Source: a virus (taxonomy: Duplodnaviria > Caudoviricetes). From it: a DNA stretch of 57,712 nt. Below, piece after piece: positions 17,204 through 53,811 of this stretch (positions are counted from its first letter, which is position 1; every line of letters starts with the position of its first letter). Where the stretch lies: positions 1-57,712 of IMG/VR virus record IMGVR_UViG_3300024309_000001, one strand, 5' to 3'. Below the pieces are notes generated by a model. That model searched no databases and was not told where the DNA came from. It saw only the letters and a list, made by a program, of their open reading frames with translations. The position numbers and the translations under genes were made by a program.

Positions 17204-17584
17204 CTACTGGTTCCCGCCCTGTGATGGATCGACGGGCTCCGGTTCGTGGATGGGCTGGATCAGGCCCTTCACGAAACGCTCGTCCTCGACGGTCTCCGGC
17301 GCCAGAACGGCGGCCTGAATCTCGGCCGTGAGTTCCGGCACCTTGGTCGCCACGTAGGCGACGAACTGGGCCACGTCGGCGCGTTTCAGGTCGATGTACT
17401 TGCGCACCTGGGTGTCGCGGATCATCGCTTGCACGTCGTCGTATGGGCAGGCCAGCACCGGGATGCGGGCTGCGCCAAATCGGTCGTAGAACGCGCCTAC
17501 CTCGATCCAGAAGTATTTTGCGGGCGCATATTCCCAGTAAGGCGGCAGCGGCGCGGGGCGCGGAGGTGTCTTAATGATGGTCAT
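17204..17584 (-). CDS. Tail-fibre assembly/hypothetical protein
   Basis: AFYDRF..RKYIDL motif; coupled to the propeller gene. Confidence 0.55.
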   Translation of the reverse strand: MTIIKTPPRPAPLPPYWEYAPAKYFWIEVGAFYDRFGAARIPVLACPYDDVQAMIRDTQVRKYIDLKRADVAQFVAYVATKVPELTAEIQAAVLAPETVEDERFVKGLIQPIHEPEPVDPSQGGNQ

Positions 17585-18711
17585 TTGATCCTCTGGTAGA
17601 GAATGGCGTCACCGTCAGCGGTGGTGTGTTCGTCGGGGATGCCGATGGCGGGGAGCTGGATGCCGGTGGCGGCGATGTCTGAGTAGTAGGCGACCGCAAC
17701 GAAAACTCCGTCGCCATAAGCGACTGAGAACCAGGATTTGCTGGCGGGCATCGTTCGCTGGATCCAAGTAATGCCGTCGGGCGACGTGGCGAACACATCA
17801 GACGCTGCCCCCGCAGAACCTGACACGACGAGAAACACCCCACCGGCGTGGATAACCGACCGCCACTGCCCAAACGCGGGCAGGGTTTGCAGTGTCCAAG
17901 TAGTGCCGTCGGGGCTGGTGGCGGCGGTGGCGGAGTTGCCAGCGACTGCAACGAAAACCCCGTTACCGTAAGCAACTGAATACCAGTTCGTGTTTTGCGG
18001 CATGACGGGCCGCGCCCAGGTAACGCCGTCTGGACTTGTTGCCACAGCCACGCTGCTAGAAACTGCCACGAAAACCCCGTTGCCGTAGGTGACAGATTGC
18101 CAGTTTGCCGAGGAGGGCAGTGTTTGCTGGGTCCAGGTGATTCCGTCGGGGCTGGTAGCTGCGGTGGCGGAGTCGCTAGCGATTGCCACGAAAACCCCGT
18201 TGCCGTAGGTGACAGATTGCCAGTTTGCCGAGGAGGGCAGTGTTTGCTGGGTCCAGGTGATTCCGTCGGGGCTGGTAGCGGCGACAGCATACCCAGAGGC
18301 GACCGCGACGAAGGTTCCGTTGCCGTAGGTGACAGATTGCCAGTTTGCCGAGGAGGGCAGTGTTTGCTGGGTCCAATTAACACCGTCGGCGGAGGTTGCT
18401 GCGGTGGCGGAGTTGCCAGCGACTGCCACAAACAACCCACCACCGTAGGCGACCCCCCGCCAATACGCACTGACGGGCAGTGTTCGTTGGGTAAACACTA
18501 CCTGATCGCTGGGCACCCCAAACTTCCCTGACGCCTCTGGGTAGGTCGATTCTTCATCGACAACCACACGGCCCGAGCGCAGGTAGACCGCACCAGACGG
18601 CGATTCATACAGGGGATCGGCCTGCAACGCGGGGCAGTCTTGGAACCATGCGCTACCGCCAACTGGGGTCGCGCTGCCATAGTTCAGGAGTTTGCGGATA
18701 CTTTGGGTCAT
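17581..18711 (-). CDS. Beta-propeller receptor-binding-like protein B
   Basis: About seven 40-aa repeats W.SVTYGNGVFVAV...ATSPDG.TW. Confidence 0.8.
   Translation of the reverse strand: MTQSIRKLLNYGSATPVGGSAWFQDCPALQADPLYESPSGAVYLRSGRVVVDEESTYPEASGKFGVPSDQVVFTQRTLPVSAYWRGVAYGGGLFVAVAGNSATAATSADGVNWTQQTLPSSANWQSVTYGNGTFVAVASGYAVAATSPDGITWTQQTLPSSANWQSVTYGNGVFVAIASDSATAATSPDGITWTQQTLPSSANWQSVTYGNGVFVAVSSSVAVATSPDGVTWARPVMPQNTNWYSVAYGNGVFVAVAGNSATAATSPDGTTWTLQTLPAFGQWRSVIHAGGVFLVVSGSAGAASDVFATSPDGITWIQRTMPASKSWFSVAYGDGVFVAVAYYSDIAATGIQLPAIGIPDEHTTADGDAILYQRIK
18064..18375. repeat. 120-bp period tandem repeat
   Basis: 18064-18159 identical to 18184-18279; partial third copy 18317-18375. Confidence 0.9.
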
Positions 18712-18712
18712 G

Positions 18713-19807
18713 TCATTTCACCCGCATGTAGAGGGTGCCATAGACCGGGTCGTTGGCGGGGGTGCGAATGCCGATAGCGGGTGGCTGGACACCAGTAGCT
18801 GCAATATCGGATTCGATAGCTGTCGCCACGAAAACTCCGTCGCCGTAGGCGATAGCTTGCCACGTTACATCATGCGACGGCAGTGTTTGCTGGGTCCAGG
18901 TAACGCCATCGGGGGATGTATAGGCGTAGCCGTCTTGAGAGATTGCGACGAAAACCCCGTTGCCGTAGGTGACGGACTGCAAGCTCTCGCCACTATCAAA
19001 TACAAGTTGCTGGGTCCAGGTGACTCCGTCTGGGGAAGTAATGATAGAGTTGTATTCAACCGCCACAAACAACCCGTTGCCATAAGTGATGGACTGCCAA
19101 TCGGCGGCAGCGGGTAGAGTTCGCTGGGTCCAGATGATCCCATCGGGGCTGGTAGCGGCGACAGCATACCCAGAGGCGACCGCGACGAAGGTTCCGTTGC
19201 CGTAGGTGATGGCCTGCCAGTTCGTTCGGGTGGGCATGGCCCACTTGGTCCAGTTAATTCCATCGGGGCTCGTAGCGACGGCATCGGAGCCGCTAGCGAT
19301 TGCCACGAAAACCCCGTTGCCGTAAGTGATGGACTGCCACCAGCCAGCGTTCGGAAGCGTTCGCTGAGTCCAGGTAATGCCGTCTGTGGACGTTGCAGCG
19401 ACATTGGAGTCCCAAGCGACCGCCACAAACAACCCGTTGCCGTAAGTGACTATCCACCCGTCATCGGTTGGTAGAGTCCCTAGAGTCCAGTTGACACCGT
19501 CTGAGCTAACGGCAACTTCGTCAAGAGCACCCGACACCGCGACGAACACCCCGTTGCCGTAGGTGACGGAAAACCAGTTCGCGTCGGCGGGCAGTGTTCG
19601 TTGGGTAAACACTACCTGATCGCTGGGCACCCCAAACTTCCCTGACGCCTCTGGGTAGGTCGCATCCTCGTCCACAATACGGTTGCCCGACTGCAAAAAC
19701 GTCATGCCCCCAACCTCGACCAGGGGTTCAGACTGCGCGGGCAGATAGACGCACTGGCCAATCTCGACTTGACCCGCGCTTGCGAGGATTTTTTTCACGT
19801 TGCTCAC
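18713..19807 (-). CDS. Beta-propeller receptor-binding-like protein A (paralog of B)
   Basis: Same repeat unit; GTG start overlaps the upstream stop. Confidence 0.8.
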   Translation of the reverse strand: MSNVKKILASAGQVEIGQCVYLPAQSEPLVEVGGMTFLQSGNRIVDEDATYPEASGKFGVPSDQVVFTQRTLPADANWFSVTYGNGVFVAVSGALDEVAVSSDGVNWTLGTLPTDDGWIVTYGNGLFVAVAWDSNVAATSTDGITWTQRTLPNAGWWQSITYGNGVFVAIASGSDAVATSPDGINWTKWAMPTRTNWQAITYGNGTFVAVASGYAVAATSPDGIIWTQRTLPAAADWQSITYGNGLFVAVEYNSIITSPDGVTWTQQLVFDSGESLQSVTYGNGVFVAISQDGYAYTSPDGVTWTQQTLPSHDVTWQAIAYGDGVFVATAIESDIAATGVQPPAIGIRTPANDPVYGTLYMRVK

Positions 19808-20430
19808 GACACCACCCACCCACGAGAGCCACCCACGAACACAAGGTCCAGGCGCAGCAGGTTCAGGTCCAGCAGCAGGTCCTCAGCAAGACCCATGATC
19901 GCGCTGCCATTGCGGGCCAGAGTGGGCGGTTTGCTGTCCCACGAACCCGACGCATCCAGCACCGCGAGCTGGTCGCCCACGGTTGGGGACGCGGGCAACG
20001 TCGCGGTGAACGCAGCGGTCGCGGTGTCCAGACCGTAAATCTTGCCCGCTGACAGTGTGGTCGCGGTGGACACCACGGCGAATTCTCCGAGGCCCCCGCC
20101 CTGCTCCCACTGTGCAGCGTCAGCTGCGGTCATGCGCAGGCCCACCACGCAAGGAGCGGTGAACGCCCGAGCCGTCGTGCCTTCCTGCCCACGCATCACG
20201 TTGCTGAACGTATTGCTGCCCGCCGTGTGCGTGCGCACGTAGACGATCTCGATGCCGGCAGTGTCCTGCACAACCAACTTGAACCAATCGGCGTCCTTGC
20301 TGATAGCCGCCGTGCCGGTGTTCGCTGTTGGGAACAGGGAGCCGCCGGCCACAATCACCAGCGATGTCGACGCTGCTGTGATGCTGGTCGCCAGTTCCGC
20401 CCGGGCGCCGTCCGCGAATTTCTGGGCCAT
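19804..20430 (-). CDS. Tail fibre proximal protein
   Basis: MAQKFADGA..RGQEGTTARAF..FTATLPASPTVGD. Confidence 0.7.
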   Translation of the reverse strand: MAQKFADGARAELATSITAASTSLVIVAGGSLFPTANTGTAAISKDADWFKLVVQDTAGIEIVYVRTHTAGSNTFSNVMRGQEGTTARAFTAPCVVGLRMTAADAAQWEQGGGLGEFAVVSTATTLSAGKIYGLDTATAAFTATLPASPTVGDQLAVLDASGSWDSKPPTLARNGSAIMGLAEDLLLDLNLLRLDLVFVGGSRGWVVS

Positions 20431-37950: not shown

Positions 37951-38927
37951 ACCGCATCCCCCTCGAAAGGGAGTTCTTCGCTCCCAACATCAAACCGGAG
38001 CCCTTTGGCGGCCGCTTCGGTGTTGCGCACCATCTGGCGGTAGTAACTGGGCTTCAGTTCGATCCCAATGGCACGCCGACCTGCGGTGACGGCGCCATAA
38101 ACCTCAGAGCCGACGCCCGCGAACGGGGTCAAAACTGTTTCACCCGGGTTGCTGCGCAGAACGATGGCACGATCGATCACGTCAAGTTGCAGAGGATGAA
38201 CGTGCTTCTCGTCGTCTGGATCGCGCGCCTCCTTGTAGGGCAACACGCGATTGAGTCGGATGTCATCCCACATACAGTCGGCATACTGGCGCCAAATCCA
38301 GTGCGAGAATCGGTTCTCGGTCTGTTTCTTGGTCCAGCCCCGGTACTTCATCACCTCGGCCGGCGGACGGCGCTCCCCGGCATACTCCATCAAACCTGCC
38401 GGGTGCTGCACCGGAATCGGATTCTTGCCGCTGCGCCGAAACATCAGCAGGTTGTCGGCAGAGGCCACGCCGCAATCGATGGAATCCGCAACCACCGTGG
38501 CGTGCGCCAAGTTCTTTTGCATCGTGCGCAGGCGCACAGCAAGCGGCTCCTTCCAGATCACATGGCGGCCGGCATATTCCCAGCCCAGGCGCTCATGCAG
38601 GCGGATGATGTCGCCCGGAAAGTCGATCAGCGAGTCCGTGCCGCTGTTGCTGCGCGGCACCTCCATGCAATGCACCGCAGTCATGCGGCCCGGCACCGTC
38701 AGGCGATGCAATTCCTGCACCACATACCCGTAGTGCTCGAAAAAATCTTCGTAGCTGCGGCAGTTGGACAGATCCCGCTCTGAGCTGCTGTAGTGGTACA
38801 GGCCACTAAAGGGCGGCGAGTAGACCGACAGGTGAATGCTTTCCGCCGGCAGGCCGCACATGACCTCGATGCAGTCCCCGTTATAAATGGCGTACTGATC
38901 GGCAATGACTTGATCAATCACACCCAT
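37947..38927 (-). CDS. N4-C/N6-A DNA methyltransferase (beta class)
   Basis: YSPPF before LTPFAGVGS. Confidence 0.85.
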   Translation of the reverse strand: MGVIDQVIADQYAIYNGDCIEVMCGLPAESIHLSVYSPPFSGLYHYSSSERDLSNCRSYEDFFEHYGYVVQELHRLTVPGRMTAVHCMEVPRSNSGTDSLIDFPGDIIRLHERLGWEYAGRHVIWKEPLAVRLRTMQKNLAHATVVADSIDCGVASADNLLMFRRSGKNPIPVQHPAGLMEYAGERRPPAEVMKYRGWTKKQTENRFSHWIWRQYADCMWDDIRLNRVLPYKEARDPDDEKHVHPLQLDVIDRAIVLRSNPGETVLTPFAGVGSEVYGAVTAGRRAIGIELKPSYYRQMVRNTEAAAKGLRFDVGSEELPFEGDAV

Positions 38928-40288
38928 GCCGGGACCTCCATTTCTTTGCTCATGGCGCGGACGCGATCAATCGTCATGGCCGTATTCATTTCCGCCACCA
39001 AGTTGGTGAACATGCGATCCGCCGCCTGCGCTTTGCTTTGCAGGTTCTTGAGCACCCCCTGGCCGCCCTCGGTGGTCACGATGTCCACGCGCACGGGCCG
39101 GCGCTGACCGAAGCGCCAGCAGCGGCGGATGCCTTGGTAGTGCTGCTCAAACGAGTGCGACGGGAAGGTGACAATGTGATTGCAATGCTGGAAGTTCAGC
39201 CCCCAGGCGCCGATCTTCGGCTTGGTCACCAGGACGCGGGATTTTCCTTCCGCAAAGGACAACAAGCGGTCTTCCTTTTCGTCGTCTGACTGTTTTCCGC
39301 TGACCTGAATGGCATCCGGAATCATTCGTTCCAGAAGATCGCCCTCGGCGTTCAAGTGACACCAGACCAGCGCGGGCTGACCAGTTTCATTGACCAGGTT
39401 GGCCACGGCCTGGCAGCGTTCCTCAATCGTCCGGTGTTGCTCTTCACGCTGCTCCTGTAGACCGGCAGCCGGGAGGTCGAATAGCATCCCGGCGGCGCGC
39501 GTGTTCGCGCTCACCAGGTGCTCGACTTCCTCAAGAGGCGGAAGCGCGAACCCATCGTCCCGGAAGCCGATATCGGACGGTCTGCGCACGGCTCGCGCCC
39601 AGGAGCAAACCCAGCGCCAGAACGGCTGTTCGGCATGCCCCTTGAAACGCCATTGGTTTTGCTTGCCCATGAACCCACGGCCTACGCTGCTGTTGCCCAA
39701 ATCGTTCTTGAAGAACCGATTGAGCATGTCCACGTAGCCCAGATAGCCCAGCGCCTCCGACGACGTGCCCAGTTCGATGTAATCGTTGGGCGCGGCCGTC
39801 GCGGTGGCCAGCAGGCGATACCGCATGCCGCGCGAAAAGTCAGTCACCAAGGCCCGGGTCTTTCCGTTGAAATTCTTCAGGATGCTGGACTCATCGCCTA
39901 CGTGCCCAACAAAATCGTTCGGGTCGAACAGGTGCAGGCGCTCGTAATTCACGACGTTGATGCCGCGCCGTACCTTGCCGTCGCGGGCAACATGGACCTC
40001 GACGCCGAATTTTTCAGCCTCGCGGGCCATCTGTTGGCTTACCGCCAGTGGCGTGTTGATCAGTACGTTGCCATTGGTGTGCTGTACGACGTTCTGCGCC
40101 CAGACAAGCTCCTGCACGGTCTTGCCCATGCCGCAATCCTCGAACAAGGCCGACCGCCCCATGCGCACCGCCCAGTCGGTCAGGTGTGCCTGGAAATCGA
40201 ACAGAATGTCTGGCATCCAAACAGGCGTGAACCCTGTTGCGTCGTCGGCCTGCCCCTTGTGCAGCAAAAAGTCCTCATAGGGCCTCAT
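38918..40288 (-). CDS. SF2 (SNF2-like) helicase
   Basis: DCGMGKT, DESS, TATAAPN, QGIRRCWRFGQ. Confidence 0.85.
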   Translation of the reverse strand: MRPYEDFLLHKGQADDATGFTPVWMPDILFDFQAHLTDWAVRMGRSALFEDCGMGKTVQELVWAQNVVQHTNGNVLINTPLAVSQQMAREAEKFGVEVHVARDGKVRRGINVVNYERLHLFDPNDFVGHVGDESSILKNFNGKTRALVTDFSRGMRYRLLATATAAPNDYIELGTSSEALGYLGYVDMLNRFFKNDLGNSSVGRGFMGKQNQWRFKGHAEQPFWRWVCSWARAVRRPSDIGFRDDGFALPPLEEVEHLVSANTRAAGMLFDLPAAGLQEQREEQHRTIEERCQAVANLVNETGQPALVWCHLNAEGDLLERMIPDAIQVSGKQSDDEKEDRLLSFAEGKSRVLVTKPKIGAWGLNFQHCNHIVTFPSHSFEQHYQGIRRCWRFGQRRPVRVDIVTTEGGQGVLKNLQSKAQAADRMFTNLVAEMNTAMTIDRVRAMSKEMEVPAWV

Positions 40289-40755
40289 GCAACACCACCC
40301 TGGCGCGCCCGCGCCTTCTCGCTTACAATTTCCACGTTCCTCATCAATTCATCCCCATGAATATGTTGAACACCGCCCGAGCCGACCTCCACAGTCGCCT
40401 CGGGCTTTTCCATTCCGGCCGCGAGCAACGCCCCGTCGGGCACGTCGTGGCCGCGGTCCAGCAGAATCTGAATGCATTCGCGCAGCAGCTCGAGCTGGGT
40501 CCCATACCGGGCCTCGAACCGCGCCTTCCACGGATGCACAGCAACGCGGCCCGGCGCGCCGGTGCCGTCCTGGTGGTTGCCGGCCGACAGCGGCAGCACC
40601 AGCCAATGCGCGTCCGGCTTCGTGCGCCCGTCGATGTGATGGATGCTGACGCGCGGCTCCCAGAAACCGTCCTTGCGGCTGGCGATGCAGCCGATCTCGC
40701 GCGCCAGCAGATCCCAGAAGCGGCGCTGCTCGGCCGTCGGTGTCCTGCCCTTCAT
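40285..40755 (-). CDS. Ref-like HNH nuclease
   Basis: GCIA..VSIHHIDGRTKPDAHWLVLPL..H. Confidence 0.7.
   Translation of the reverse strand: MKGRTPTAEQRRFWDLLAREIGCIASRKDGFWEPRVSIHHIDGRTKPDAHWLVLPLSAGNHQDGTGAPGRVAVHPWKARFEARYGTQLELLRECIQILLDRGHDVPDGALLAAGMEKPEATVEVGSGGVQHIHGDELMRNVEIVSEKARARQGGVA
40336..40410 (+). ncRNA. Candidate ~75-nt antisense/trans-acting sRNA
   Basis: TACAAT at 40324-40329, GCCCGAG..CTCGGGC-TTTT terminator, seed complementary to two RBS regions; weak -35. Confidence 0.5.
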
Positions 40756-41543
40756 GCCGACTCCTGGCCAAGCACCCAGCGCAGGGCGTCGGCATAGGGC
40801 CCAGACGCATCCGCCAGGGCCGTCTCGATCTGCTTGCGAGTCCGCATGCGGGGCTTGTCCTCGCCCAGGACGGCGCGCTGGCGCCGGGCGCGTTCATGCG
40901 GTTTGACGCCAGCACCGGCCTGCACCAAAGCGTCAACCTTCGCGCGCTGCTCGGCCGGAGGCATGCGCCCCAGTGCCTTGGCCTGCGTGGCGTTGATCTG
41001 TCCGGCCTCCACCGCCTGCTGCACGGATTGCGTGCACTCGAGCAGGGAGAGGGTCCCGCCGACGGTAGCCGGCGAGCAGCCGAAGATGATGGCCAGATCG
41101 GCTTCCGTGTATCCCAAGCCGACCAGCTGCTGCATCATCCGGGCGCGCCCCATGGGCGTGTCGTCTTTGCGGATGGCGTTCTCGCTGGCCATCAACGCGG
41201 CGGCGGTCCGGCGATCCAGCCCCTTGCGAGTGAACCCGGGCACCGTGATCGGCTTGCGCCCCTTGGCTGCCAGCCTGCGGTTGGCCTCCCGGGCATTCTT
41301 CACGCGCTGCCGGCCGAAAACCACCTGCACCTCGCCGGTTTCCGTGTCCTTGAGAACCATGATCGGCTCGGCCACGCCGGACATCATGATGCTGTCGACC
41401 ATTGCCTCGTCGATCGGCAGGTGCACGCGCTCGTCGTACAGCGGATGGGCCGGGTCCGTCACCAGGGTCAACTGCTCGGGGTCGAAGAACAGCAGATTGG
41501 TCTTGCCGGCCGCGCCGTACGCCTCGATGGAATTTTTTGCCAC
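40752..41543 (-). CDS. ParB-like protein
   Basis: GVAEPIMV..VVFGRQRV..ENAIR plus HTH. Confidence 0.75.
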   Translation of the reverse strand: MAKNSIEAYGAAGKTNLLFFDPEQLTLVTDPAHPLYDERVHLPIDEAMVDSIMMSGVAEPIMVLKDTETGEVQVVFGRQRVKNAREANRRLAAKGRKPITVPGFTRKGLDRRTAAALMASENAIRKDDTPMGRARMMQQLVGLGYTEADLAIIFGCSPATVGGTLSLLECTQSVQQAVEAGQINATQAKALGRMPPAEQRAKVDALVQAGAGVKPHERARRQRAVLGEDKPRMRTRKQIETALADASGPYADALRWVLGQESA

Positions 41544-41558
41544 AGTGATGTCTCCGCT

Positions 41559-42080
41559 TTATTCGCCGAAATCGGCCAGGATGGTTTCGATCATTTCGGC
41601 CGCCGCCATGGGCGACAGGTGCGGCCACAGGATCTTCTGGGCATGCTCGGTGCGCAGGAACTGCACGGCATCGGCGTGAAAGGCCTCCATCGCGCCCTGT
41701 TCCATGCTGCTGTACCGGATCGACTTCACGACCGGGATCACGCCGCCCTTGGGGCCTGGGTACCAGTCCACCAGGCCGGCTCCGGTCTTGAGCCAGTCAC
41801 GGAACGGCCGGAACGCCTCAAACCGATCCTGGGCCTGGAAAATCGCCTGCTCCAACGCCATGTGCTTGCGGTGGTACCAGCCCAGGCGCTCCTGATTGGT
41901 ACTGATGTCCATCGCCTCGCCGGGCTCCAGCTTCCATATCCGGTTCCACAGGCGGCGCCATGCCTTCTGGTTGCGTTCGCCCAGACCGTCGACCATCTCG
42001 AAAACGGCCTTGCGCGCAACCGCCAGCTCCTGGTCGGTCAGGCTGATGTCGTGTCGGCGGACCAGGGTGATCTCGGCCAT
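41559..42080 (-). CDS. DUF1367-like phage protein
   Basis: FRDWLKTGAG..KSIRYSSMEQ. Confidence 0.6.
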   Translation of the reverse strand: MAEITLVRRHDISLTDQELAVARKAVFEMVDGLGERNQKAWRRLWNRIWKLEPGEAMDISTNQERLGWYHRKHMALEQAIFQAQDRFEAFRPFRDWLKTGAGLVDWYPGPKGGVIPVVKSIRYSSMEQGAMEAFHADAVQFLRTEHAQKILWPHLSPMAAAEMIETILADFGE

Positions 42081-42082
42081 GG

Positions 42083-42499
42083 TTACTGCCCCAGGCGCGC
42101 CCGGCTGTAGGCCAGAGCCCCCATCAGGTGCTGATCCAGCACCCAGCGGATGTAGTCGGCCTTGGGCCGGCCCGCCAGCCCGGCCAGCGCCACCACCGCG
42201 TCGTACAGTTCCTCGGTGACAGGCAGGTCCAGGCGATGCGTGCATTTGTCGCCGCCGCCCTGCCCGCCCATGCGCGATTCGGACGCATCATGGTCGTCAG
42301 CGCCCCCCCCCGACTGGCTGACCGCCAGCGCGCCCAGCGCGTGGATTTCCAGGACGCGGCGGGCGTACGCTGTCTTCGTGACATCGCACAGGCTGGCCAG
42401 CATCGTGATCTGGTCGTAGACCTGCTCCGACACCGGCACATCGAGCCGTAGTGTGTGGCGCGCACCCTCGGCGCGCTGCTGACGAGAATTGAAGAACAT
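42083..42499 (-). CDS. Tandem RHH-like regulator at the cII-like position
   Basis: Two copies of RLD.PV.E..YD....LA......K..Y.R.VL..H..GALA.S. Confidence 0.65.
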   Translation of the reverse strand: MFFNSRQQRAEGARHTLRLDVPVSEQVYDQITMLASLCDVTKTAYARRVLEIHALGALAVSQSGGGADDHDASESRMGGQGGGDKCTHRLDLPVTEELYDAVVALAGLAGRPKADYIRWVLDQHLMGALAYSRARLGQ

Positions 42500-42564
42500 G
42501 GGTTATCCGATAATGATCTGGTTCACCACCGGCCCGCCCTGCGGCAGACTGGCAGTATGGAAAA

Positions 42565-42933
42565 TCAGTCCTTTTTCTCGCCCTGTTCCAGCGCCTTGTT
42601 AGCAGCCAACGCAGCCGCTATCACTTCTTCGGCGGCGCTCTTCGGGGAGCATGCGGTTCGCCTTGCGACGTCGGCGGCAGCAGCGAGTGCCGCATCGAAA
42701 GCGCGTTGCCGATCTTGTGCGGCACGGATGACGGCGCTGAGAGCCAACTTCCGCACCATCGCGCCATCGCCCGCGCCGGTCGTTCCGCCCTCGGCGGCAC
42801 CGCTGACTCCCCCGGTAGCGCTAGATCCGAACGGGTATCCGTCCACCTTCACCGGCACGCCGAACAGCTTGGCCACGAGGTGGACCGGCCACAGCCGCCA
42901 CGCCGGGTATTGCGTCAATTCCTGGTTGATCAC
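42565..42933 (-). CDS. Hypothetical protein
   Basis: AGGAG RBS with GTG start. Confidence 0.55.
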   Translation of the reverse strand: MINQELTQYPAWRLWPVHLVAKLFGVPVKVDGYPFGSSATGGVSGAAEGGTTGAGDGAMVRKLALSAVIRAAQDRQRAFDAALAAAADVARRTACSPKSAAEEVIAAALAANKALEQGEKKD

Positions 42934-43054
42934 GGTTTTCTCCTGTCAGATGTCGGTAGGCCCGATGGGGATTTTTTTGTCCCGTTCCGGGCTGCGGTCC
43001 GGACTGTCACCCGTATGATCGACAGCACCCAAACCCCCACAGAGGAAGGCGCCG

Positions 43055-43339
43055 ATGACCGTCCCCACCATTTCTGTCGAAGCACTGCATGGACGCCTCA
43101 TCGCATGCGCCTCCCTAGTGAATTCCCTAGTGCGCGTGCTGCCCATCGAACAGCTGCGCGAACTGGAGCAAGAATTGACGGACGACTCGGAATACGGACG
43201 CGGCTTTCTGCTGACGCAGCCCTGTCCGGATCGGACAATCGACGCCTACGACGCCTACGCGCAAGCGCACTTGAGGGTCGTACGCCACGCGATTCAGGCC
43301 CGGCAAGAGCCTCCCACGCCCGGCGACGATCCTCTGTAG
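43055..43339 (+). CDS. Counter-oriented hypothetical protein
   Basis: GAGGAAGG RBS; TATGAT -10 at 43014. Confidence 0.55.
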   Translation: MTVPTISVEALHGRLIACASLVNSLVRVLPIEQLRELEQELTDDSEYGRGFLLTQPCPDRTIDAYDAYAQAHLRVVRHAIQARQEPPTPGDDPL

Positions 43340-43356
43340 AAACCAGCCGCCGCGGA

Positions 43357-43623
43357 TCACGCATGCTCAGCCTCCCGCGGGAGATTCGCAGCGGCTTTCC
43401 CATTGGTCGCCAATTCAGGCCAGATCAGGTGCCAGTCGTCCGGCCGCAGGTCGCGGCGGGTTACGGCACCATCGGTGGCGACCTCGATGGCGGCGCAACG
43501 ATCGGCAGGAATTTTCCTTCGTCCATCCCTCCAGAAGCACACCGCCTGTGGGGTGACGTGGATGGCTCGGGCCAGCGCTGATGCGCTGCCCATCTTCCGG
43601 ATGGCGGTTTGGATAGGGTTCAT
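43357..43623 (-). CDS. cro: Cro/YdaS-like repressor
   Basis: SALARAIHVTPQAVCFW..IEVATDGAVTRRDLRPD. Confidence 0.85.
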   Translation of the reverse strand: MNPIQTAIRKMGSASALARAIHVTPQAVCFWRDGRRKIPADRCAAIEVATDGAVTRRDLRPDDWHLIWPELATNGKAAANLPREAEHA

Positions 43624-43631
43624 ACGTCGCA

Positions 43632-43698
43632 ATTCTACACTTGTAGATATTTATCATCAACAACTGTATTTGATGGCACTTCTACACCTGTTTAAAGT
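43632..43698. promoter_or_regulatory. OR region: divergent promoters and three operators
   Basis: TCTACA-nn-TGTAGA at 43634, variants at 43657 and 43681; TTGATG-17-TAGAAT (-), TTGATG-17-TAAAGT (+). Confidence 0.8.
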
Positions 43699-43705
43699 GT
43701 GGGCC

Positions 43706-44182
43706 ATGGCACTAGGCAAGCAAATTAAGTTCTATCGCGAAAAGCTGAATCTCACTCTGGAGCAACTGGAGGAGATATCGGGTGTAGGCACAGGCACGAT
43801 CAACGCCCTGGAAGTGAGGGATAGCGTGCGCTCCAAGTTTGCGCCCGCTCTTGCCGCTGCCTTCAGGCTATCTGTTGAGCAACTTCTGGATGAGTCACGT
43901 GATTGGCTCTCCGAAGCGGCACACCAACAATCGACAACTGGTAGCGGCAAGAAGGTTGCCGCGCTTTCGGATCTGGCTGCTGTTGAACTATGGACACGCT
44001 ATCAGCGCGCCAACCGTGCGGCACAATTGGTGGTTGATCTCGCGCTTGGCCGCCGGGTCCAACCCCAGGATGAAGCACTAAAGCATTCAGTACAGGCAGC
44101 GATATCGGTCGCAGCCGCCTCTTTTCCAAAAGAAAAACACACGAAATCCGCCAAAAAGCGGGAAAGTTCTGCTGTTTCCTAA
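43706..44182 (+). CDS. cI: CI-like XRE repressor without S24 domain
   Basis: LGKQIKFYREKLNLTLEQLEEISGVGTGTINALE; divergent from cro. Confidence 0.8.
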   Translation: MALGKQIKFYREKLNLTLEQLEEISGVGTGTINALEVRDSVRSKFAPALAAAFRLSVEQLLDESRDWLSEAAHQQSTTGSGKKVAALSDLAAVELWTRYQRANRAAQLVVDLALGRRVQPQDEALKHSVQAAISVAAASFPKEKHTKSAKKRESSAVS

Positions 44183-44206
44183 AATTTTTGATCCTGACAT
44201 TTCAAA

Positions 44207-44449
44207 ATGAAAAAATGACAACTGAATATATTTTTCAGGTACATAGTCTACGGACTCGCCAGCATCTCCATACTACTGGCTGTTGGCGGCCTGTCGTCTT
44301 GGACAACTGCCAAGCGGCCCGAGTTATTGCTGTCTTCGCTTGTTTCTATCGGTTTTTCTGTGGTGACCATAGTGAAAATCACGTGGCGGCCATTGATGGC
44401 AGGTTTCCTGCTGAATCGGACTATTCAGCTCATGGAGAGAAAATCATGA
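44207..44449 (+). pseudogene. Membrane-protein gene with broken 5' end
   Basis: MKK*QLNIFFRYIVYGLASISILLAVGG..LLLSSLVSIGFSVVTIV..; stop overlaps the next ATG. Confidence 0.55.
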
Positions 44450-44727
44450 AGCCATCCCTCATTACCTCGGCTTTGATCATTTGCGCCGCTCTGTCTGGAT
44501 GCGCATCGGTCAGTGAGGTCTCTCAGTTGGACAAAAACACATACTTCCTCACCGTAGATACCGGAAACCAACAATTCACCACCGGCGACTTGCTGAGCAA
44601 GGCTTCCGTCAAGGCAACTGAGTTTTGTGGCAAGCGGGGTCGCTCAATGTCCGCTATCGGGTCAGACCTGGATCATCGGGGCTTTGGCAATCGAGATCTG
44701 ACGCTTCGGTTTCGGTGCGTAGAGTGA
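44446..44727 (+). CDS. Lipoprotein (superinfection-exclusion candidate)
   Basis: LSGC lipobox, GGAGA RBS, two further Cys. Confidence 0.75.
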   Translation: MKPSLITSALIICAALSGCASVSEVSQLDKNTYFLTVDTGNQQFTTGDLLSKASVKATEFCGKRGRSMSAIGSDLDHRGFGNRDLTLRFRCVE

Positions 44728-45092
44728 TGGAGGGTAAATTCTTGCTCGCCGTGCCAGCCCTCGCAATTGGTGCTGTGCTTGGCTATTATGGTTCTGGCTT
44801 GTTTGATGTGGCGGACATGACGCCTTATCAGCGATGCGTGGATGACGCATCCCGCAGGCCGACCAATAACGGGGTAAGAGCGGCATTCGAGTTGTGCCGG
44901 ACTAGGTTCTCACCGCCATCAGGGCTGGAAAGCACCGCTGAGCCTGTCGCAAAGCATGGCCCGTGGAATAAATACGCGGAAAAACGCGATGACCTTTGTC
45001 TAGCACTGAAAAACGCTAAATCTACCGGTGCGACTGACGACGCTCGACGTCTTGAGGAATTCATAAACTCAAACAGCCTCGAATGTGAATAA
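44727..45092 (+). CDS. Membrane-anchored protein with ejection-protein-like motifs
   Basis: N-terminal TM, Cys pair, GPWNKY, LCLALKNAKSTGATDDARRL. Confidence 0.7.
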   Translation: MEGKFLLAVPALAIGAVLGYYGSGLFDVADMTPYQRCVDDASRRPTNNGVRAAFELCRTRFSPPSGLESTAEPVAKHGPWNKYAEKRDDLCLALKNAKSTGATDDARRLEEFINSNSLECE

Positions 45093-45240
45093 CACCGCCT
45101 CACATTAGCCAAATAAGGCATCCTTCAACCCCGCATCCGGATGCGGCCACATCGCTGCCGCCGCCACGCCAAGACGCTCTGCCCTCCTTCACTTGATGGT
45201 TCTTTTTTAGCCATCTCGATGGCGGCGCTTTTCCTAGAAT

Positions 45241-45315
45241 TCTACACTTGTTGACAGAAATAAATCTACATGTGTAGAATTCATCCCAAGCCCTCACGGG
45301 CGCGTTCTTTCACAA
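45241..45315 (+). promoter_or_regulatory. PL/OL with boxA-like site
   Basis: TTGACA-18-TAGAAT; operators at 45241 and 45265; GTTCTTTCACAA resembles boxA. Confidence 0.8.
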
Positions 45316-45396
45316 CTTGGGATTCAGAGGAGAGGCGCAGGAATGCGCGCCTTTCGGTCAGGATTACGCAGGGCAGCGTCAACTGCCCCGCGCTTC

Positions 45397-45498
45397 CTAG
45401 GTCACGGCGATCAGGATGATGGCGGCAACAGCCCGTAAGACTGCGGCCACATCAACAATCACGTCCACCTTCACAGACACTTTCCGGCTCATTTGCAT
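45397..45498 (-). CDS. 31-33 aa hydrophobic peptide (type I toxin-like)
   Basis: (MQ)MSRKVSVKVDVIVDVAAVLRAVAAIILIAVT*, followed by GC-rich hairpins. Confidence 0.5.
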   Translation of the reverse strand: MQMSRKVSVKVDVIVDVAAVLRAVAAIILIAVT

Positions 45499-45867
45499 GT
45501 CCAAGAAAGCCTGTGGCCACAGGCGTTAAGCCTGGTGTATTTGTATACCGCCCCTGCTCGGCGGTTGCGGGTCGCGTACCTAGGATGCTCCCCGCCCCCC
45601 AGTGCCAAGCCAAGGATTGCTTAGCTCGCTGGGAGCGGCTTGCGTCACCTAAGGCTTTCGTCGCAGCCGCCGTCTGTCGCGTTTCGCCGGTCACTTGGTC
45701 GGAATGCGAACAGTGCGACTGTCGTTTTGCCTTGGCGACGCGCACCTGTTAGCGGCTCGTGAGGCCGCAACCGAGGTTCACGGCCTCGGCTGGAAAAGCA
45801 TAGCACTACTCCCCCTCCCCTGAATCCCCGGTTTTGAAAGCTTTCATGGGGATGAAAGGAGGAAGTC

Positions 45868-46095
45868 ATGGGTGTCTTTGAATACTCGATCTTGTGGATC
45901 AACCTGCTGGCGATCGCGGCGACGTGCGACAGCATTTGGGTCAGTCACATCCGGCCGATTCTGGCGCGGAAATATGGCTGGCCGGATCTGGATCCCGACG
46001 AGCTGATCCCGGCACAAGCCTGGATCGGCGCGCTGGCCGTCATTGCGATCCTGTTCATCGCGGTGCCGGTCATCGGCAACGCGGCGGGGTTCTGA
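45868..46095 (+). CDS. Small two-TM membrane protein
   Basis: AAGGAGG RBS; two hydrophobic segments. Confidence 0.7.
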   Translation: MGVFEYSILWINLLAIAATCDSIWVSHIRPILARKYGWPDLDPDELIPAQAWIGALAVIAILFIAVPVIGNAAGF

Positions 46096-46096
46096 T

Positions 46097-46429
46097 ATGG
46101 CCACGATCAAAGCAACAGTGGGCGCCTGGCTGAGCAGCGATTACGCCCAACAACGGTTCGTTGAGGGCCGACAGAGCGGAGACCCCGCCCGCACGCTGGC
46201 CGCAATTGCCCTCAACCACCAAGACATGACCGACTGTGGCTGGACGCGCATTGGGGAAGCGACTGTCACGCTCGAAGTCGCGGAAGACAGCCAGATCCGT
46301 CAGAACATGGTCAGCGCCCTGCAGGAGCAGAAGAGGTCCGTACTGGCGAAAGCCCAACGCGAGGCCATGCAAATCGAAGAACGGATCCAGAACCTGCTGG
46401 CGATCAGCTTCGACGGGAGCGTGTCATGA
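46097..46429 (+). CDS. Hypothetical protein
   Basis: GWTRIGEATVT plus coiled coil ending IQNLLAI. Confidence 0.7.
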   Translation: MATIKATVGAWLSSDYAQQRFVEGRQSGDPARTLAAIALNHQDMTDCGWTRIGEATVTLEVAEDSQIRQNMVSALQEQKRSVLAKAQREAMQIEERIQNLLAISFDGSVS

Positions 46430-46614
46430 GTTCCTGGCCCTATATCGGCGGCCCCTGCGTGGAGCCGCCAGACGACGAGCTCGACGACATCCAAAAACGT
46501 CAGCACGAGGAAGATGCGGCCGAGGATGCGTACTTTGAAACGCGGGCGTGCCGGGATGAACTCGCCGATGCCGCCGAGGACATCTGGCTGCGGTCAAGGG
46601 GGCTCGAGGCATGA
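46426..46614 (+). CDS. Small acidic protein
   Basis: ATGA overlaps on both sides. Confidence 0.6.
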   Translation: MSSWPYIGGPCVEPPDDELDDIQKRQHEEDAAEDAYFETRACRDELADAAEDIWLRSRGLEA

Positions 46615-47417
46615 GCGACATCGTCAAAGTCCGCGCCTCCAGCTGGGCCAGCCTGTTCGACTGCGCCCACCGCTGGGAGGGCGAACATCTGCTAGGCATC
46701 CGCAAGCCGGCCGGCATGCGGGCGCTGCTGGGCACGGCAGTCCACGCCGGGACTGCGGCGTACGACCGCGGCCGCATGTACGGCTCCGGTGTCACGGCCG
46801 ACGAGGCGGCCGGCGTGGTCGTGGATACGCTGCATGACCCGCAATTCGAGGTGGACCGCAGCCAAGACGACCTGAGCTTGCGCGAGACCGAGCGCATCGC
46901 GCTGACCGCCCACAGCCTGTACTGCGCCGAGGTCAGCCCACAGTTCCAGTTCGTCGGGGTGGAGAACACGCTGGACCCGCTGGACATCGATTGCGGCAAT
47001 GGCGTGACGATCCGGCTGACCGGCACGATGGACCGGGCGCGGGCCGCGCAGACCGAGGCCGGGCCGGTCATCGCCGACGTGAAGACCGGCACTCGCGTGA
47101 TCGAGCAAGGCCGCGCAAGCACGCGTGGCCGCGCCGCCCAGACCGGCACCTACCAGCTTATGTACGAGCACACCGAGCGCGTCAGCACCGCCGGCAGCCA
47201 GATCCTTGCGCTGTCCACCACCAGCACGCCGGCCGCGGCCGTCAGCCCGGTATTCGACGCCCGCCGCGTGATGGTGGGCGCCGAAGGCCAGCCCGGTCTG
47301 ATCGAACACGCGGCCGCGATGTTCAAGTCCGGCCTGTTCCCCCCGAATCCATCCAGCCCGCTGTGCAGCCCGAAGTACTGCCCGCGCTGGGAAACCTGCC
47401 TGTTCCGCGAACGCTGA
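46611..47417 (+). CDS. Cas4/RecB-like PD-(D/E)xK exonuclease
   Basis: DC..GTAVH..GTMD..ADVKTG..Q..Y..CSPKYC..C. Confidence 0.8.
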   Translation: MSDIVKVRASSWASLFDCAHRWEGEHLLGIRKPAGMRALLGTAVHAGTAAYDRGRMYGSGVTADEAAGVVVDTLHDPQFEVDRSQDDLSLRETERIALTAHSLYCAEVSPQFQFVGVENTLDPLDIDCGNGVTIRLTGTMDRARAAQTEAGPVIADVKTGTRVIEQGRASTRGRAAQTGTYQLMYEHTERVSTAGSQILALSTTSTPAAAVSPVFDARRVMVGAEGQPGLIEHAAAMFKSGLFPPNPSSPLCSPKYCPRWETCLFRER

Positions 47418-51280: not shown

Positions 51281-52145
51281 GCAACAAGAAAACTACGCGC
51301 AGACGATCGCCAAGGAAGCGCGTCGACCCGTGCAGATGGGAAGCCTGGGAGGCCGTGGCGCGGTGATAGCGCTGCCCGAGGGCTGGGCCCTGAAAACCGA
51401 CTCCAGCCTGGAAGCCCTGGCCGATCATCCGTACCGCAAAAAGGGCACGGTTCGCTTCAAGGTACAGGAATCCTTCGTTGAATACGTCAACAAGCACAAG
51501 CTGCCCGAAAGCGTGATCTACGCGACCGTCAATAAGGGCGAACGAGATGCACCGCTGAAGGTTACTGCCGTGTTCAACGATCACGATGAAGAACGACGTC
51601 CACCGGCAGATAGCCCGGTCAACGCCGGTTGGCAGGACTTCCGCGCCATCCTCGCGCCCGAGGCATCTCACGAGTGGCGCACCTGGACAGCCAGCTCCGG
51701 CAAGGCGATGAGCCAGTTCGAGTTCGCCCAGTTCATCGACGACAACATCAAGGACATTAGCAGCAGTCAGGAGGGTTACCCGACCGGCACCGAGATGCTG
51801 CAGATGGCTCTTGCCTTCGAATTGTCGCAGGACAAGCGCATCAAGTCGGCAATCCGCATCCAGAGCGGCGGCACCAACATCGAGTACGTCGAAGACGATG
51901 ATGCCGCCACCGTCGCGCGCATGCAGGCCTTCGATAAGTTCATGCTGGGCATTCCCGTCTTCTGGCGCGGCCAGGCCTACGCGGTGGAAGCCAAGTTGCG
52001 CTACCGCGTGCGCGAGGGTGCCCTCACCCTCTGGTACGACCTGGTGCGCACCGATGTGGTGGTCGACGACGCCGTGGAGCAGATCCTGCAGGCGGTTGGC
52101 ACGGGCACAGAATCCTCGATTCTGTACGGCGAAATCGTCAAGTGA
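51273..52145 (+). CDS. DUF2303/YfdQ-like protein
   Basis: SFVEYVNKH..AVFNDH..MSQFEFAQFIDDN..LRYRV. Confidence 0.75.
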   Translation: MLEQQENYAQTIAKEARRPVQMGSLGGRGAVIALPEGWALKTDSSLEALADHPYRKKGTVRFKVQESFVEYVNKHKLPESVIYATVNKGERDAPLKVTAVFNDHDEERRPPADSPVNAGWQDFRAILAPEASHEWRTWTASSGKAMSQFEFAQFIDDNIKDISSSQEGYPTGTEMLQMALAFELSQDKRIKSAIRIQSGGTNIEYVEDDDAATVARMQAFDKFMLGIPVFWRGQAYAVEAKLRYRVREGALTLWYDLVRTDVVVDDAVEQILQAVGTGTESSILYGEIVK

Positions 52146-52152
52146 GGCTGGG

Positions 52153-52776
52153 ATGAACACCGCTCTCTTCTACGACACCGAGACCACCGGCCTCCCCCTC
52201 TTTTCCGAGCCGTCCGAGGATCCGCGCCAGCCGCACATCGTCCAGCTCGCAGCCGTGCTGGTGGACCTGGACACGCGCGAGATCGTCAGCAGCATGGATG
52301 TGATCGTGCGCCCTGACGGCTGGGAAATCCCGCAGGAAGTCGCTGCGATTCACGGTATCACGACAGAAACCGCATTGGAGTTTGGGATCGCGGAAGGCCA
52401 GGCAGTGGCACTGTTCACGTCCTTATGGAATGAACGCACTCGAATTGGTCACAACGAGGCGTTCGACGCTCGCGTCATCCGCATCGCCCAGATGCGTACC
52501 CGGTGCTATGGGATTTCGGAGCTGGCAGCTTGGAAGGGAGGCTCGGCCGAATGCACAGCCAAGCTCTCCACACCCATCGTGAAGTGCCCCCCCACGGCCA
52601 AGATGAAGGCCGCCGGGCGCTTCCACTACAAGACGCCGACCCTGGCCGAAGCCCACCAGCATTTCCTGGGCTGTCCGCTGGAGAACGCCCACAGCGCCAT
52701 GGCCGATGTGCTGGGCTGCATGCGGGTCTACTTCGCCATCCAGGACCAGAAGGTCCCGGAGGCAGCCACCGCCTGA
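52153..52776 (+). CDS. DEDDh 3'-5' exonuclease
   Basis: YDTETTG, IHGIT, GHNEAFD, AHSAMADV. Confidence 0.85.
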   Translation: MNTALFYDTETTGLPLFSEPSEDPRQPHIVQLAAVLVDLDTREIVSSMDVIVRPDGWEIPQEVAAIHGITTETALEFGIAEGQAVALFTSLWNERTRIGHNEAFDARVIRIAQMRTRCYGISELAAWKGGSAECTAKLSTPIVKCPPTAKMKAAGRFHYKTPTLAEAHQHFLGCPLENAHSAMADVLGCMRVYFAIQDQKVPEAATA

Positions 52777-53101
52777 AAGAACGCACCCCGGAAGGGCCGC
52801 GCCGCAGAGCATCGCGGCAATCCATGCGCCGGTCGAGGACTGGGCGGCGCGCGGTAGGCCCGCACTGAGAGGATCCGCGCCGAGTCTCCGGCGCCGGTCT
52901 TGACGGTCGGCCGATCCGACCGCACCCGCTGCAAAAGTGGCCCGCCGCAGGGCCATGACGCAGCCTCCGGGACGAGGGTAACCCGGAACCTACGCCGATG
53001 GGCACTCGGCCGCCGCCTGCGTATGGCCGCCAGCCTGAGCGCGCACAGGTCCATGGGGGGACATGGTGATAGCCCCATCCGAACAATTCATGGGGATGAA
53101 G

Positions 53102-53371
53102 ATGGACAGCAAAATTGAAATCGCGGATCTGGTGAAGCCGAAATTCGAGCCGAGGGACATGGTGTACCAGGTGGTGCGTGACAACAACCGGCGGGTCAAC
53201 AGCGTGCGGCGCGTCATGATCGAACAAGTCAGGTTCACCGTGACATTTGGCAGCGTGAACGGCCGTGAGAAGACGCGCAGGACGGAGCTGGTGTACGACC
53301 TGCTGAACAACGGACAGGCGCACGAAGAAAGCCTGTTCGCCACGCTGGGCGAAATCAAGGAGCTGGCATGA
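53102..53371 (+). CDS. Hypothetical protein
   Basis: GGGGA RBS, ATGA-coupled to the next gene. Confidence 0.6.
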   Translation: MDSKIEIADLVKPKFEPRDMVYQVVRDNNRRVNSVRRVMIEQVRFTVTFGSVNGREKTRRTELVYDLLNNGQAHEESLFATLGEIKELA

Positions 53372-53811
53372 GGCGCACGAAAAAAACCCGTGCCGTGGCG
53401 CCGCCGGCTGAATTCTGGGATGGCGAGCGCGCCATCTGCACCTACTGCAACGCGCCAGCGAGCCTGGCGCAGCATGGCGACGACCTGTACCCCTACCGTC
53501 GCGACTTCGGCCCGCTGTGGGCTTGCCAATGCGGCGCGTACGTCGGCTGCCATCCTCGGACCACCATCCCGCTGGGCCGGCTGGCCGACAACGATCTGCG
53601 CGCCGCCAAGAAACTCGCCCATGCCGTGTTCGACCCGCTCTGGCAGGTTGCCATCAAAGGCAACTTCAAAGCCAGGCAGGCCCGCAGCGAAGGCTACGCC
53701 TGGCTGGCACAGGAGCTGGGCATCAGCGTGGACCAGTGCCATATCGGGTGGTTCGATCTGGCGCAGTGCCAACGCGTCATCGACATCTGCACGCACAAGG
53801 TGCCGGCATGA
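53368..53811 (+). CDS. Zinc-finger protein (DUF3268-like)
   Basis: CTYC..CQCGAYVGCH..PLGRLA..CHIGWF. Confidence 0.75.
   Translation: MRRTKKTRAVAPPAEFWDGERAICTYCNAPASLAQHGDDLYPYRRDFGPLWACQCGAYVGCHPRTTIPLGRLADNDLRAAKKLAHAVFDPLWQVAIKGNFKARQARSEGYAWLAQELGISVDQCHIGWFDLAQCQRVIDICTHKVPA

Follow-up and report, generated by a model that had tools for sequence, protein, structure and literature searches.

A dispersed 14-base repeat and a candidate antisense RNA gene in the early region of a temperate phage

Introduction

The sequence TTCATCCCCATGAA is found at 40348-40361 on the (+) strand of the phage genome described here, and its exact complement occurs at 45843-45856 and at 53087-53100. This raises the question of what connects three identical 14-mers (copies A, B and C) in two oppositely transcribed gene blocks. 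An original prediction, made from the letters of the DNA, had assigned copy A to a small RNA of the OOP or C4 type acting in trans on two distant early genes, with a protein operator as the alternative.

Several known systems can be compared with this arrangement. Identical short inverted repeats dispersed over a replicon are found in the KorB-OB and ParB-parS systems together with a ParB-type HTH protein, and the CI RNA of P4 is a phage antisense RNA whose loops pair with multiple complements at ribosome sites. According to PMC12197685, lambda OOP is a small RNA with its own promoter that runs against an early operon and ends at a hairpin terminator, its duplex being cleaved by RNase III, while the c4 RNA of P1/P7 carries loop sequences that pair with more than one short site at or near early-operon ribosome sites. 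For plasmid R1, PMC12361487 describes the CopA-CopT pair, in which the antisense RNA covers the ribosome site of the tap leader that is coupled to repA.

Results

Gene blocks, promoters and immunity operators

The window, i.e. the whole stretch of DNA analyzed, is a complete virus record of 57,712 bp with 64% G+C. The gene blocks were delimited by a map of G+C by codon position together with PHROG and Pfam scans. A single leftward block extends from about 43623 down to 233. It begins with a Cro/YdaS-like gene, several small genes, a ParB-like gene, a Ref-like nuclease gene, an SNF2-type helicase gene and a methyltransferase gene, and continues with O/P-like replication genes and the genes for terminase, portal, capsid, tail and a 2826-residue virion protein. 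The rightward block, also single, runs from 45868 to the end of the record and encodes a small membrane protein, an exonuclease, RecT-like, SbcC-like and DUF2303 proteins, a DnaQ-type exonuclease, the product of gene C and methyltransferases. The interval between the blocks contains an HTH_3 repressor-like gene (43706-44182) and accessory genes of low G+C.

Two strong outward promoters were identified, a leftward one at 43660-43632 (-) with TTGATG-N17-TAGAAT and an early rightward one at 45251-45280 (+) with TTGACA-N18-TAGAAT, which would make the transcript carrying copies B and C. Both are overlapped by the immunity operators, four TCTACA-N2-TGTAGA sites with 0, 2, 1 and 0 mismatches. Since these constitute the immunity operators, a role of the 14-mer as CI/Cro operator was ruled out. 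The capsid protein shows 81.5% identity to the capsid of Achromobacter phage CF418P1, from which Alcaligenaceae are likely hosts; the phage itself is temperate. Four sequencing runs were examined in the form of contigs, which are blind to strand, ends and level; one of them, from an RNA library, contains the whole stretch at flat depth.

The 14-base repeat

A scan of the window for TTCATCCCCATGAA at up to two mismatches returned three matches, every one of them exact and at the positions originally given, compared to a mean of 0.31 in shuffled controls, of which none out of 100 reached three. When three mismatches were permitted, only two more matches appeared, both with three mismatches, against an expected 3.16, so that a degenerate family of the 14-mer does not exist. 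Outside the tandem repeats at 17.6-19.7 kb, which were left out of the count, three 14-mers are present at least three times in the 57.7-kb genome. Two of these are overlapping words of a local repeat at 20988/21054/21408, and the TTCATCCCCATGAA motif is the sole dispersed exact 14-mer with three copies. Similarity of the flanks beyond the 14-mer was not significant, as shuffled flanks scored as high in 127, 22 and 151 trials out of 300. The repeat unit is therefore the 14-mer itself.

Copy A belongs to the leftward block, copies B and C to the rightward one, and in the direction of the local genes each of them consequently reads TTCATGGGGATGAA. This shared polarity relative to local transcription had gone unnoticed in the original prediction. 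Since it is the same at all copies, orientation does not separate a model with an antisense RNA from one with a sense RNA.

The sense strand at site A

Copy A is located in the 3' tail of the gene for a Ref-like RecA-dependent nuclease (40285-40755, (-); Pfam RecA_dep_nuc over residues 6-98), 59 nt before the gene for an SNF2-type DNA helicase (38918-40288, (-); PHROG 62, E 2e-50; 80 related loci). The Ref-like tail past about residue 120, which carries the element, has a low third-position G+C by our own count; among the loci of Ref relatives, 34 of the 35 viral ones and all 14 from metagenomes lack this tail. Upstream of copy A, at a distance of 391 bp, lies a gene for a ParB-like protein (40752-41543; Pfam HTH_ParB, E 9.6e-14; ParB-like PHROGs).

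The in-frame end of the Ref-like frame forms a leader frame of 19 codons, MRNVEIVSEKARARQGGVA (40285-40344, (-)), whose stop overlaps the ATG of the helicase gene as ATGA. In the sense direction the motif provides GGGGA seven bases before the in-frame ATG at 40344 of this frame. The overlap of copy A with the ribosome site of a conserved short leader frame was likewise missed before. Via coupling to the leader frame, the helicase gene is likely the target in cis.

Read on the sense strand, TACAAT corresponds to the rare codons ATT and GTA, which account for 14.8% of Ile and 4.6% of Val codons in the window and for 28% and 7%, respectively, in the provirus L282 described below. That both phages kept these codons suggests that the nucleotide sequence itself is constrained. 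Inspection by eye of the surroundings of TTCAAC revealed no promoter on the sense strand.

A candidate antisense RNA gene on the (+) strand

The promoter-like and terminator-like elements that the original prediction had placed around the 14-mer are present on the (+) strand. The candidate -10 box TACAAT (40324-40329) belongs to the block AAATTGTAAG, which is identical in the window and L282. The candidate -35 hexamer TGGCGC (40301-40306), 17 nt upstream of it, matches TTGACA at 2 of 6 positions and recurs at an equal spacing of 17 nt on the L282 antisense strand. This conservation is ambiguous, since the bases of TGGCGC also lie in the leader frame and near the ribosome site of the helicase gene. 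Downstream, hairpin 1 (40336-40371) comprises a base of GUUC/GAAC, an apical stem of AUUCAU/AUGAAU and the loop CCCC (40353-40356), so that the 14-mer makes up its apical stem and loop. Hairpin 2 (40375-40405) followed by UUUU (40406-40409) represents a candidate intrinsic terminator pointing rightward inside the leftward operon.

The antisense strand of the window folds with -28.1 kcal/mol (z -6.6 to -6.8). In a regression on G+C, the 79-nt window containing the fold lies at -1.9 SD, and 523 of 16,468 windows are at least as stable; the fold of site A is no genome-wide outlier. A simple sigma-70 promoter scan of 39000-42000 called no site, TACAAT included, and a terminator scan requiring five T made no call at hairpin 2, whose U-run comprises four. 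Rfam gave no match at the gathering score over the entire window, and a more permissive search of 40000-46200 (E up to 1) was equally empty.

Homology to an element of a distant provirus

When four records were scanned with one mismatch allowed, TCCATGAGGATGAA was found in L282, a complete provirus of 56.9 kb, where it precedes the helicase gene by 56 nt. A second record, L338, represents the same DNA and is identical across the aligned element. The segment L282:6776-6905 is homologous to the window at 40416-40286, and the alignment of the RNA region (L282:6776-6880, an element of about 105 nt) shows 83% identity, compared to 75% for the Ref cores and 60% for the 5' ends of the helicase genes. 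While the element lies inside a frame in the window, it is intergenic in L282, where it follows an unrelated gene of 80 codons. The conserved block GGAATGRAAAAGCCCG is coding in the window and forms a stop codon and spacer in L282. Further blocks kept in both are GGCGGTGTTCAACA, the motif, the -10 block and GCGCCAGGG. The leader frame has a free-standing counterpart of 17 codons in L282, MNEKIVSEAAQMRQGSA, which likewise ends in an ATGA overlap and has GAGGA as its ribosome site. The two short frames share 11 residues, of which four show synonymous changes. A part of the conservation could be explained by the sense-strand frame and its ribosome site.

Read on the antisense strand, the two phages show the same order of TGGCGC-N17-TACAAT, six bases, the hairpin base, two hairpins and CUUUU(U), the U-run after hairpin 2 being five in L282 versus four in the window. 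The antisense strand of L282 adopts the same shape (-29.9 kcal/mol, z -5.0), whereas its sense strand folds no better than shuffles (z -0.66). One of the conserved blocks is a hairpin whose inner stem differs between the two phages. The RNAalifold consensus contains 21 pairs, of which four show double compensatory changes, two show single changes to wobble pairs and none is broken. In hairpin 1, a U-A pair became U-G in L282, which is a pair on the antisense strand only. Among the 10 pairs of hairpin 2, three double changes are compensatory and one A-U became G-U. On the sense strand both wobble pairs correspond to mismatches, C-A in hairpin 1 and A-C in hairpin 2, and the consensus sense fold loses the motif hairpin. 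All 42 of 42 cells of the consensus pairs are compatible with pairing, compared to 22-39% when the partners were slid. The covariation, which had been proposed as a check in related phages, is that between the window and L282, two sequences for which 29 of 500 shuffles reached the observed values. Altogether, the assignment of site A as an sRNA gene is moderately supported by this one covarying relative. Of the small RNA circuit proposed originally, a conserved and covarying antisense element stands, while the simple promoter and terminator scans did not call its signals.

Searches for further copies of the element

Most relatives of the Ref-like gene, at 35 viral and 14 metagenome loci, stop short of the tail that bears the element, and only L282 and, weakly, L317 are informative among them. 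L317 shows a weaker hairpin 2 with UUUUU, antisense at the 3' end of its Ref homologue, for which the covariance model R1 gave 18.3 bits, with E 0.15 in a set of 80 loci and 0.0011 when searched alone. This terminator hairpin is possibly a third instance of the element. Beyond L317, model R1 found nothing new over 164 sources, and in the G009 family it matched one of 151 genomes, namely the centre genome itself, and none of the other 150. A degenerate pattern of 26 columns matched only the L282 record in viral_contigs, and in genome_contigs it matched L338 and two unrelated records by chance. BLAST of the element gave matches in 3 of 401 genomes, two of them short, partial and at most 8.4 bits with R1, and none in 50,697 phage records.

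Searches with the motif gave a similar picture. None of the 80 helicase loci in viral_contigs carries it, and their neighbouring genes differ. Among relatives of the exonuclease encoded at 46611-47417, five records out of 31 loci contained no motif at up to one mismatch, and one record had one match with two mismatches. The exact 14-mer occurs in at least 115 stretches of viral_contigs, with a single match in every one listed. As none of the loci from this motif scan resembles the window by BLAST, these matches are read as chance.

Copies B and C

The original prediction had placed copies B and C just before start codons, and the measured distances are 11 nt and 1 nt. Copy B, TTCATGGGGATGAA at 45843-45856 (+), lies at the end of a leader of 581 nt, counted from the promoter at 45251-45280, before the ATG at 45868. 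It forms the local hairpin CUUUCAU-GGGG-AUGAAAG with -6.8 kcal/mol (z -4.3). Gene B (45868-46095, (+)), the first gene of the rightward operon and a putative target in trans, encodes a hydrophobic protein of 75 residues for which no Pfam or PHROGs family and no relative in viral_contigs was found; in the atlas it gave weak leads to membrane proteins only. In one run, present as contigs, a relative with 95-99% identity covers B with few differences, and not A or C; it is too close to be informative.

Copy C, at 53087-53100 (+), ends 1 nt before the ATG at 53102, and its GGGGA is likely the ribosome site of gene C (53102-53371, (+)), the second putative target in trans. Its 89-residue protein belongs to PHROG 35429, whose profile begins at the Met of ATG 53102, i.e. 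at residue 14 of a longer frame. Three distant relatives were found in viral_contigs, and a lead to ProQ-C-like proteins stayed below threshold. The local hairpin of copy C is weak (-2.7 to -3.9 kcal/mol, z -0.3).

Both targets had been described as ending long structured spacers. For B this holds true, since its 581-nt leader folds with z -3.78 and none of 100 shuffles was as good. The spacer before C measures 325 nt and not about 900, because 52153-52776 is the gene for the DnaQ-type exonuclease, and it does not stand out by its fold (z -1.56), which 8 of 100 shuffles equalled. The conserved segment 52165-52763 was rejected as spacer for being part of this exonuclease gene.

Cofolding reproduced the pairing that had been suggested beyond the 14-mer, with UUCCUC pairing to GAGGAA at B, and CAUC and UGUU pairing around the AUG of C. 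The difference between cofold and separate folds amounts to -18.6 kcal/mol for C and -11.5 for B. Ranked among 58 gene starts, C was first and B third (median -1.35, SD 3.4). At C the predicted duplex takes in the AUG, and at B it takes in GGAGGAA. In the candidate RNA as well as in the targets, the 14-mer is enclosed in a hairpin. The small hairpins that the complements at B and C adopt have a GGGG loop, so that a start by loop-loop contact is plausible. A trans action on B and C is plausible, as it fits the predicted pairing and the positions. L282 contains its own variant of the motif once, the seven further matches each having three mismatches, and no homologue of gene B or gene C was found in it.

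Discussion

Proposed model

The reading that we favour, albeit tentatively and at somewhat less than even chances, is an antisense RNA from site A that acts in cis and, by predicted pairing, in trans on B and C. The sequences show directly the repeats with their positions, the element common to two phages and its covarying antisense fold, and from these we infer the production of this RNA, its end positions and its effects in cis and in trans. The candidate would comprise about 74 nt (approximately 40336-40409, (+)), started from TGGCGC-N17-TACAAT and ended by a hairpin and U-run inside the leftward early operon; its counterpart in L282 would run from about 6857 down to 6783 on the antisense strand. 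Its hairpin 1 would display a C-rich loop (CCCC) on an AU-rich stem. In cis, the RNA would be fully complementary to the Ref-helicase junction of the leftward mRNA. As the leader frame, whose stop lies on the helicase start, would be covered at its ribosome site and its start, expression of the helicase should drop, either by blockade of the leader, by cleavage with RNase III or by both. This cis part looks ancestral, since it is common to the distant provirus. In trans, the same RNA could pair at the ribosome sites of genes B and C, with the CCCC and GGGG loops meeting first, and block translation.

Alternative explanations

The same three copies could instead be DNA sites for a dimeric protein with the arms TTCAT and ATGAA, for which the ParB-like protein would be the candidate and which could serve as a roadblock or loading site. 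The repeat resembles ParB-parS and KorB-OB in its dispersed identical inverted repeats (5+5 arms, three exact copies) and in the ParB-type HTH protein encoded next to copy A (40752-41543), and as the immunity operators belong to another family, the second DNA-binding specificity that would be needed is also available. Unlike in those systems, however, the conserved 4-bp core GGGG lacks palindromic symmetry and is oriented alike with respect to transcription in all three copies, two copies adjoin start codons and not promoters, and no ParA-type family was found among the scanned proteins. Copy B lies about 560 nt past its promoter, and no promoter-like site was found in 52100-53400. Degenerate copies, which characterize the true operator family of this phage, were not found either. 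Comparison with other phages points in the same direction. The palindrome is broken in L282 (TCCAT..ATGAA), where the element persists although no ParB homologue was found in this complete provirus, i.e. the co-occurrence of site and protein fails. The sequence TTCAT-N4-ATGAA has one match with one mismatch in phi1026b, which carries a related ParB-like gene, 1-3 scattered 1-mismatch matches in each of three other records chosen via their Ref genes, and no match in Achromobacter phage CF418P1. The operator alternative of the original prediction is thus weakened and is considered unlikely.

Two further readings accept a role of RNA but not the action in trans by an antisense molecule. If an antisense RNA acted only in cis at the Ref-helicase junction, in the manner of OOP or CopA, copies B and C would have another cause and could represent a ribosome-site cassette spread by recombination or the sites of another factor. 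All comparative signals indeed concern site A, L282 carries the element and no second copy, and at A, at C and in L282 the motif includes a GGGGA or GAGGA that serves an ATG as ribosome site. Yet three exact 14-mers without similar flanks are unlike a recombination footprint or a simple ribosome site, the ordinary ribosome sites of this genome do not share 14 nt, and an abundant RNA with exact complementarity over 14 nt plus extensions would be expected to bind both ribosome sites, which makes a restriction to cis rather improbable. A sense mRNA hairpin, UUCAU-GGGG-AUGAA, serving as translational operator for an RNA-binding protein of phage or host would require no antisense RNA. It would account for the common sense polarity, for the ATG found 1-11 nt after each copy, for the extension of the stem by complementary pairs at A (6 bp) and B (7 bp) and for its formation in the fold of the whole leader at B. 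It is broken by a C-A mismatch in L282, where the antisense hairpin keeps U-G, is weak at C with the values given above, and leaves the conserved antisense U-run and the rare codons at TACAAT unexplained. No RNA-binding protein family was found besides the ProQ-C-like lead for gene C, which is below threshold. We regard such a sense-strand operator as improbable.

Comparison with known antisense RNAs

Compared to known systems, the proposed antisense RNA combines several features. Lambda OOP overlaps cII and is located between cII and O. Like OOP, the candidate would run against the 3' end of an early gene and precede genes of the replication type, and in position the label "OOP-like" is apt. 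Candidate signals for a transcript of this kind, a -10 box and a terminator, are conserved in two phages, and simple scans made no call. Unlike in lambda, the overlapped gene encodes a Ref-like nuclease and not cII, the downstream gene encodes an SNF2-type helicase, the candidate also spans a leader frame coupled to that gene, and OOP is not known to have exact targets in trans in the opposite early arm.

With CopA the candidate shares two stem-loops, a covered ribosome site of a leader frame and a frame stop on the downstream start. The leader of the CopA/tap type is represented by the predicted frames of 19 codons in the window and 17 codons in L282. In such a layout a blockade of the leader would shut off the downstream gene. 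This gene is, however, a phage SNF2-type helicase and not a plasmid initiator that sets copy number, and unlike tap of R1 the leader frame in the window continues the reading frame of the upstream Ref gene. The loop of CopA is larger than the 4-nt loop of the candidate.

As in c4 and CI, an apical stem-loop is complementary over 14 nt to two ribosome sites, a likeness in complementarity only. While c4 and CI are excised from the transcript that bears their targets, the candidate would have its own promoter and terminator and is separated from its putative targets by 5.4 and 12.7 kb, being located in the arm of opposite transcription. Furthermore, nothing ties it to immunity, since a protein repressor with its own operators is present. 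The Rfam models revealed no homology in sequence or structure to lambda OOP or R1 CopA, and as Rfam presumably includes a c4 model, the lack of a match bears on c4 as well. Since the defining positional or homology features of OOP, CopA and c4 are not found, the candidate is not a member of those families. By analogy, it may work like OOP in position and size, like CopA/tap in the use of a leader and like c4 in having multiple ribosome-site targets.

Implications

A cross-operon timer would be a speculative extension of the proposed model, and we consider it doubtful. In a lysogen or in early infection, the RNA would keep genes B and C untranslated, and the leftward mRNA would act as its sponge. 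If this were true, transcription of the leftward operon would destroy the RNA and license translation in the rightward arm, the cis target mRNA being the sponge. If, on the other hand, the operator reading were true, the sites would define the DNA specificity of an orphan ParB-like protein of the phage.

Few regulatory RNAs encoded by phages are known outside the model phages of E. coli, and the candidate matches no Rfam family. If real, the 74-nt RNA would unite an OOP-like position, CopA-like control of a leader and c4-like multiple targets, and would couple the two divergent early operons of a temperate phage. It would also offer a compact case for a cis-antisense RNA that gains trans targets, with a relative showing the cis arrangement only and this phage having two additional exact copies.

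Gene C and a possible counterpart of the candidate antisense RNA

The original prediction had placed a long spacer in front of gene C, a putative trans target of the candidate antisense RNA. Most of this apparent spacer proved to be a DnaQ/RNase T-type exonuclease gene (52153-52776), which numerous related proviruses (L202-L213 and others) carry with approximately 70% DNA identity. What is left as spacer comprises 52777-53101. For gene C itself (53102-53371), a Pfam search with E values up to 0.01 gave no match, and the atlas model showed a weak likeness to clusters, with a match below the bar of the tool. Among the members of these clusters, 24% carry a phage ProQ C-terminal-like domain. Based on this model, an affinity of gene C to ProQ C-terminal-like domains can be regarded only as a lead.

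Immediately upstream of the helicase start, the candidate -35 box and the candidate -10 box have a GC-rich palindrome, GGCGCGCCCGCGCC (40302-40315), between them. It is not kept in L282, the distant provirus with a homologous element before its helicase gene.

A similar arrangement was noted at 3333-3429 of L317, which belongs to a 283-kb metagenome contig. Here, too, a Ref homologue has AAAAAG and a GC-rich hairpin at its end, and on the antisense strand this hairpin carries a UUUUU tail. Next come a GGAGG ribosome site and a frame of 13 codons overlapping the start of a replication-type gene. This region may represent a third, more diverged case of this design that lacks the motif hairpin.

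Virion genes

The virion protein encoded at 233-8713 comprises 2826 residues, with endolysin-like and DarB-like stretches; over a long C-terminal part it matches PHROG 18222, a family of unknown function. At 17600-19700, about 13 repeats of a 120-nt (40-codon) unit span two neighbouring frames on the - strand (17581-18711 and 18713-19819), which probably encode a tail-fibre or spike protein of repetitive sequence.

Immunity region and early operons

The immunity region (43357-45280) contains a Cro/YdaS-like gene (43357-43623, - strand) and an HTH_3 repressor-like gene (43706-44182, + strand). Four TCTACA-N2-TGTAGA operators (43634, 43681, 45241 and 45265) overlap two outward early promoters. 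Since the cro-like ATG follows the end of the leftward -10 box by 8 nt, the leftward cro-like mRNA may be leaderless or almost leaderless.

The rightward operon has a leader of 581 nt (45287-45867), in which no convincing gene was found. This leader folds far more stably than shuffled sequences do (z -3.78; 0 of 100 shuffles fold as well), and a 95-99% relative in sequencing run X8 is without 224 nt of it (45353-45576). Possibly the leader acts in antitermination or in processing.

The repressor gene is followed downstream by a low-G+C cluster (44200-45092), in which one frame starts with MKPSLITSALIICAALSGCAS; this start looks like a lipoprotein signal. The genes of the cluster are probably accessory (moron) genes, which would be on in the lysogen.
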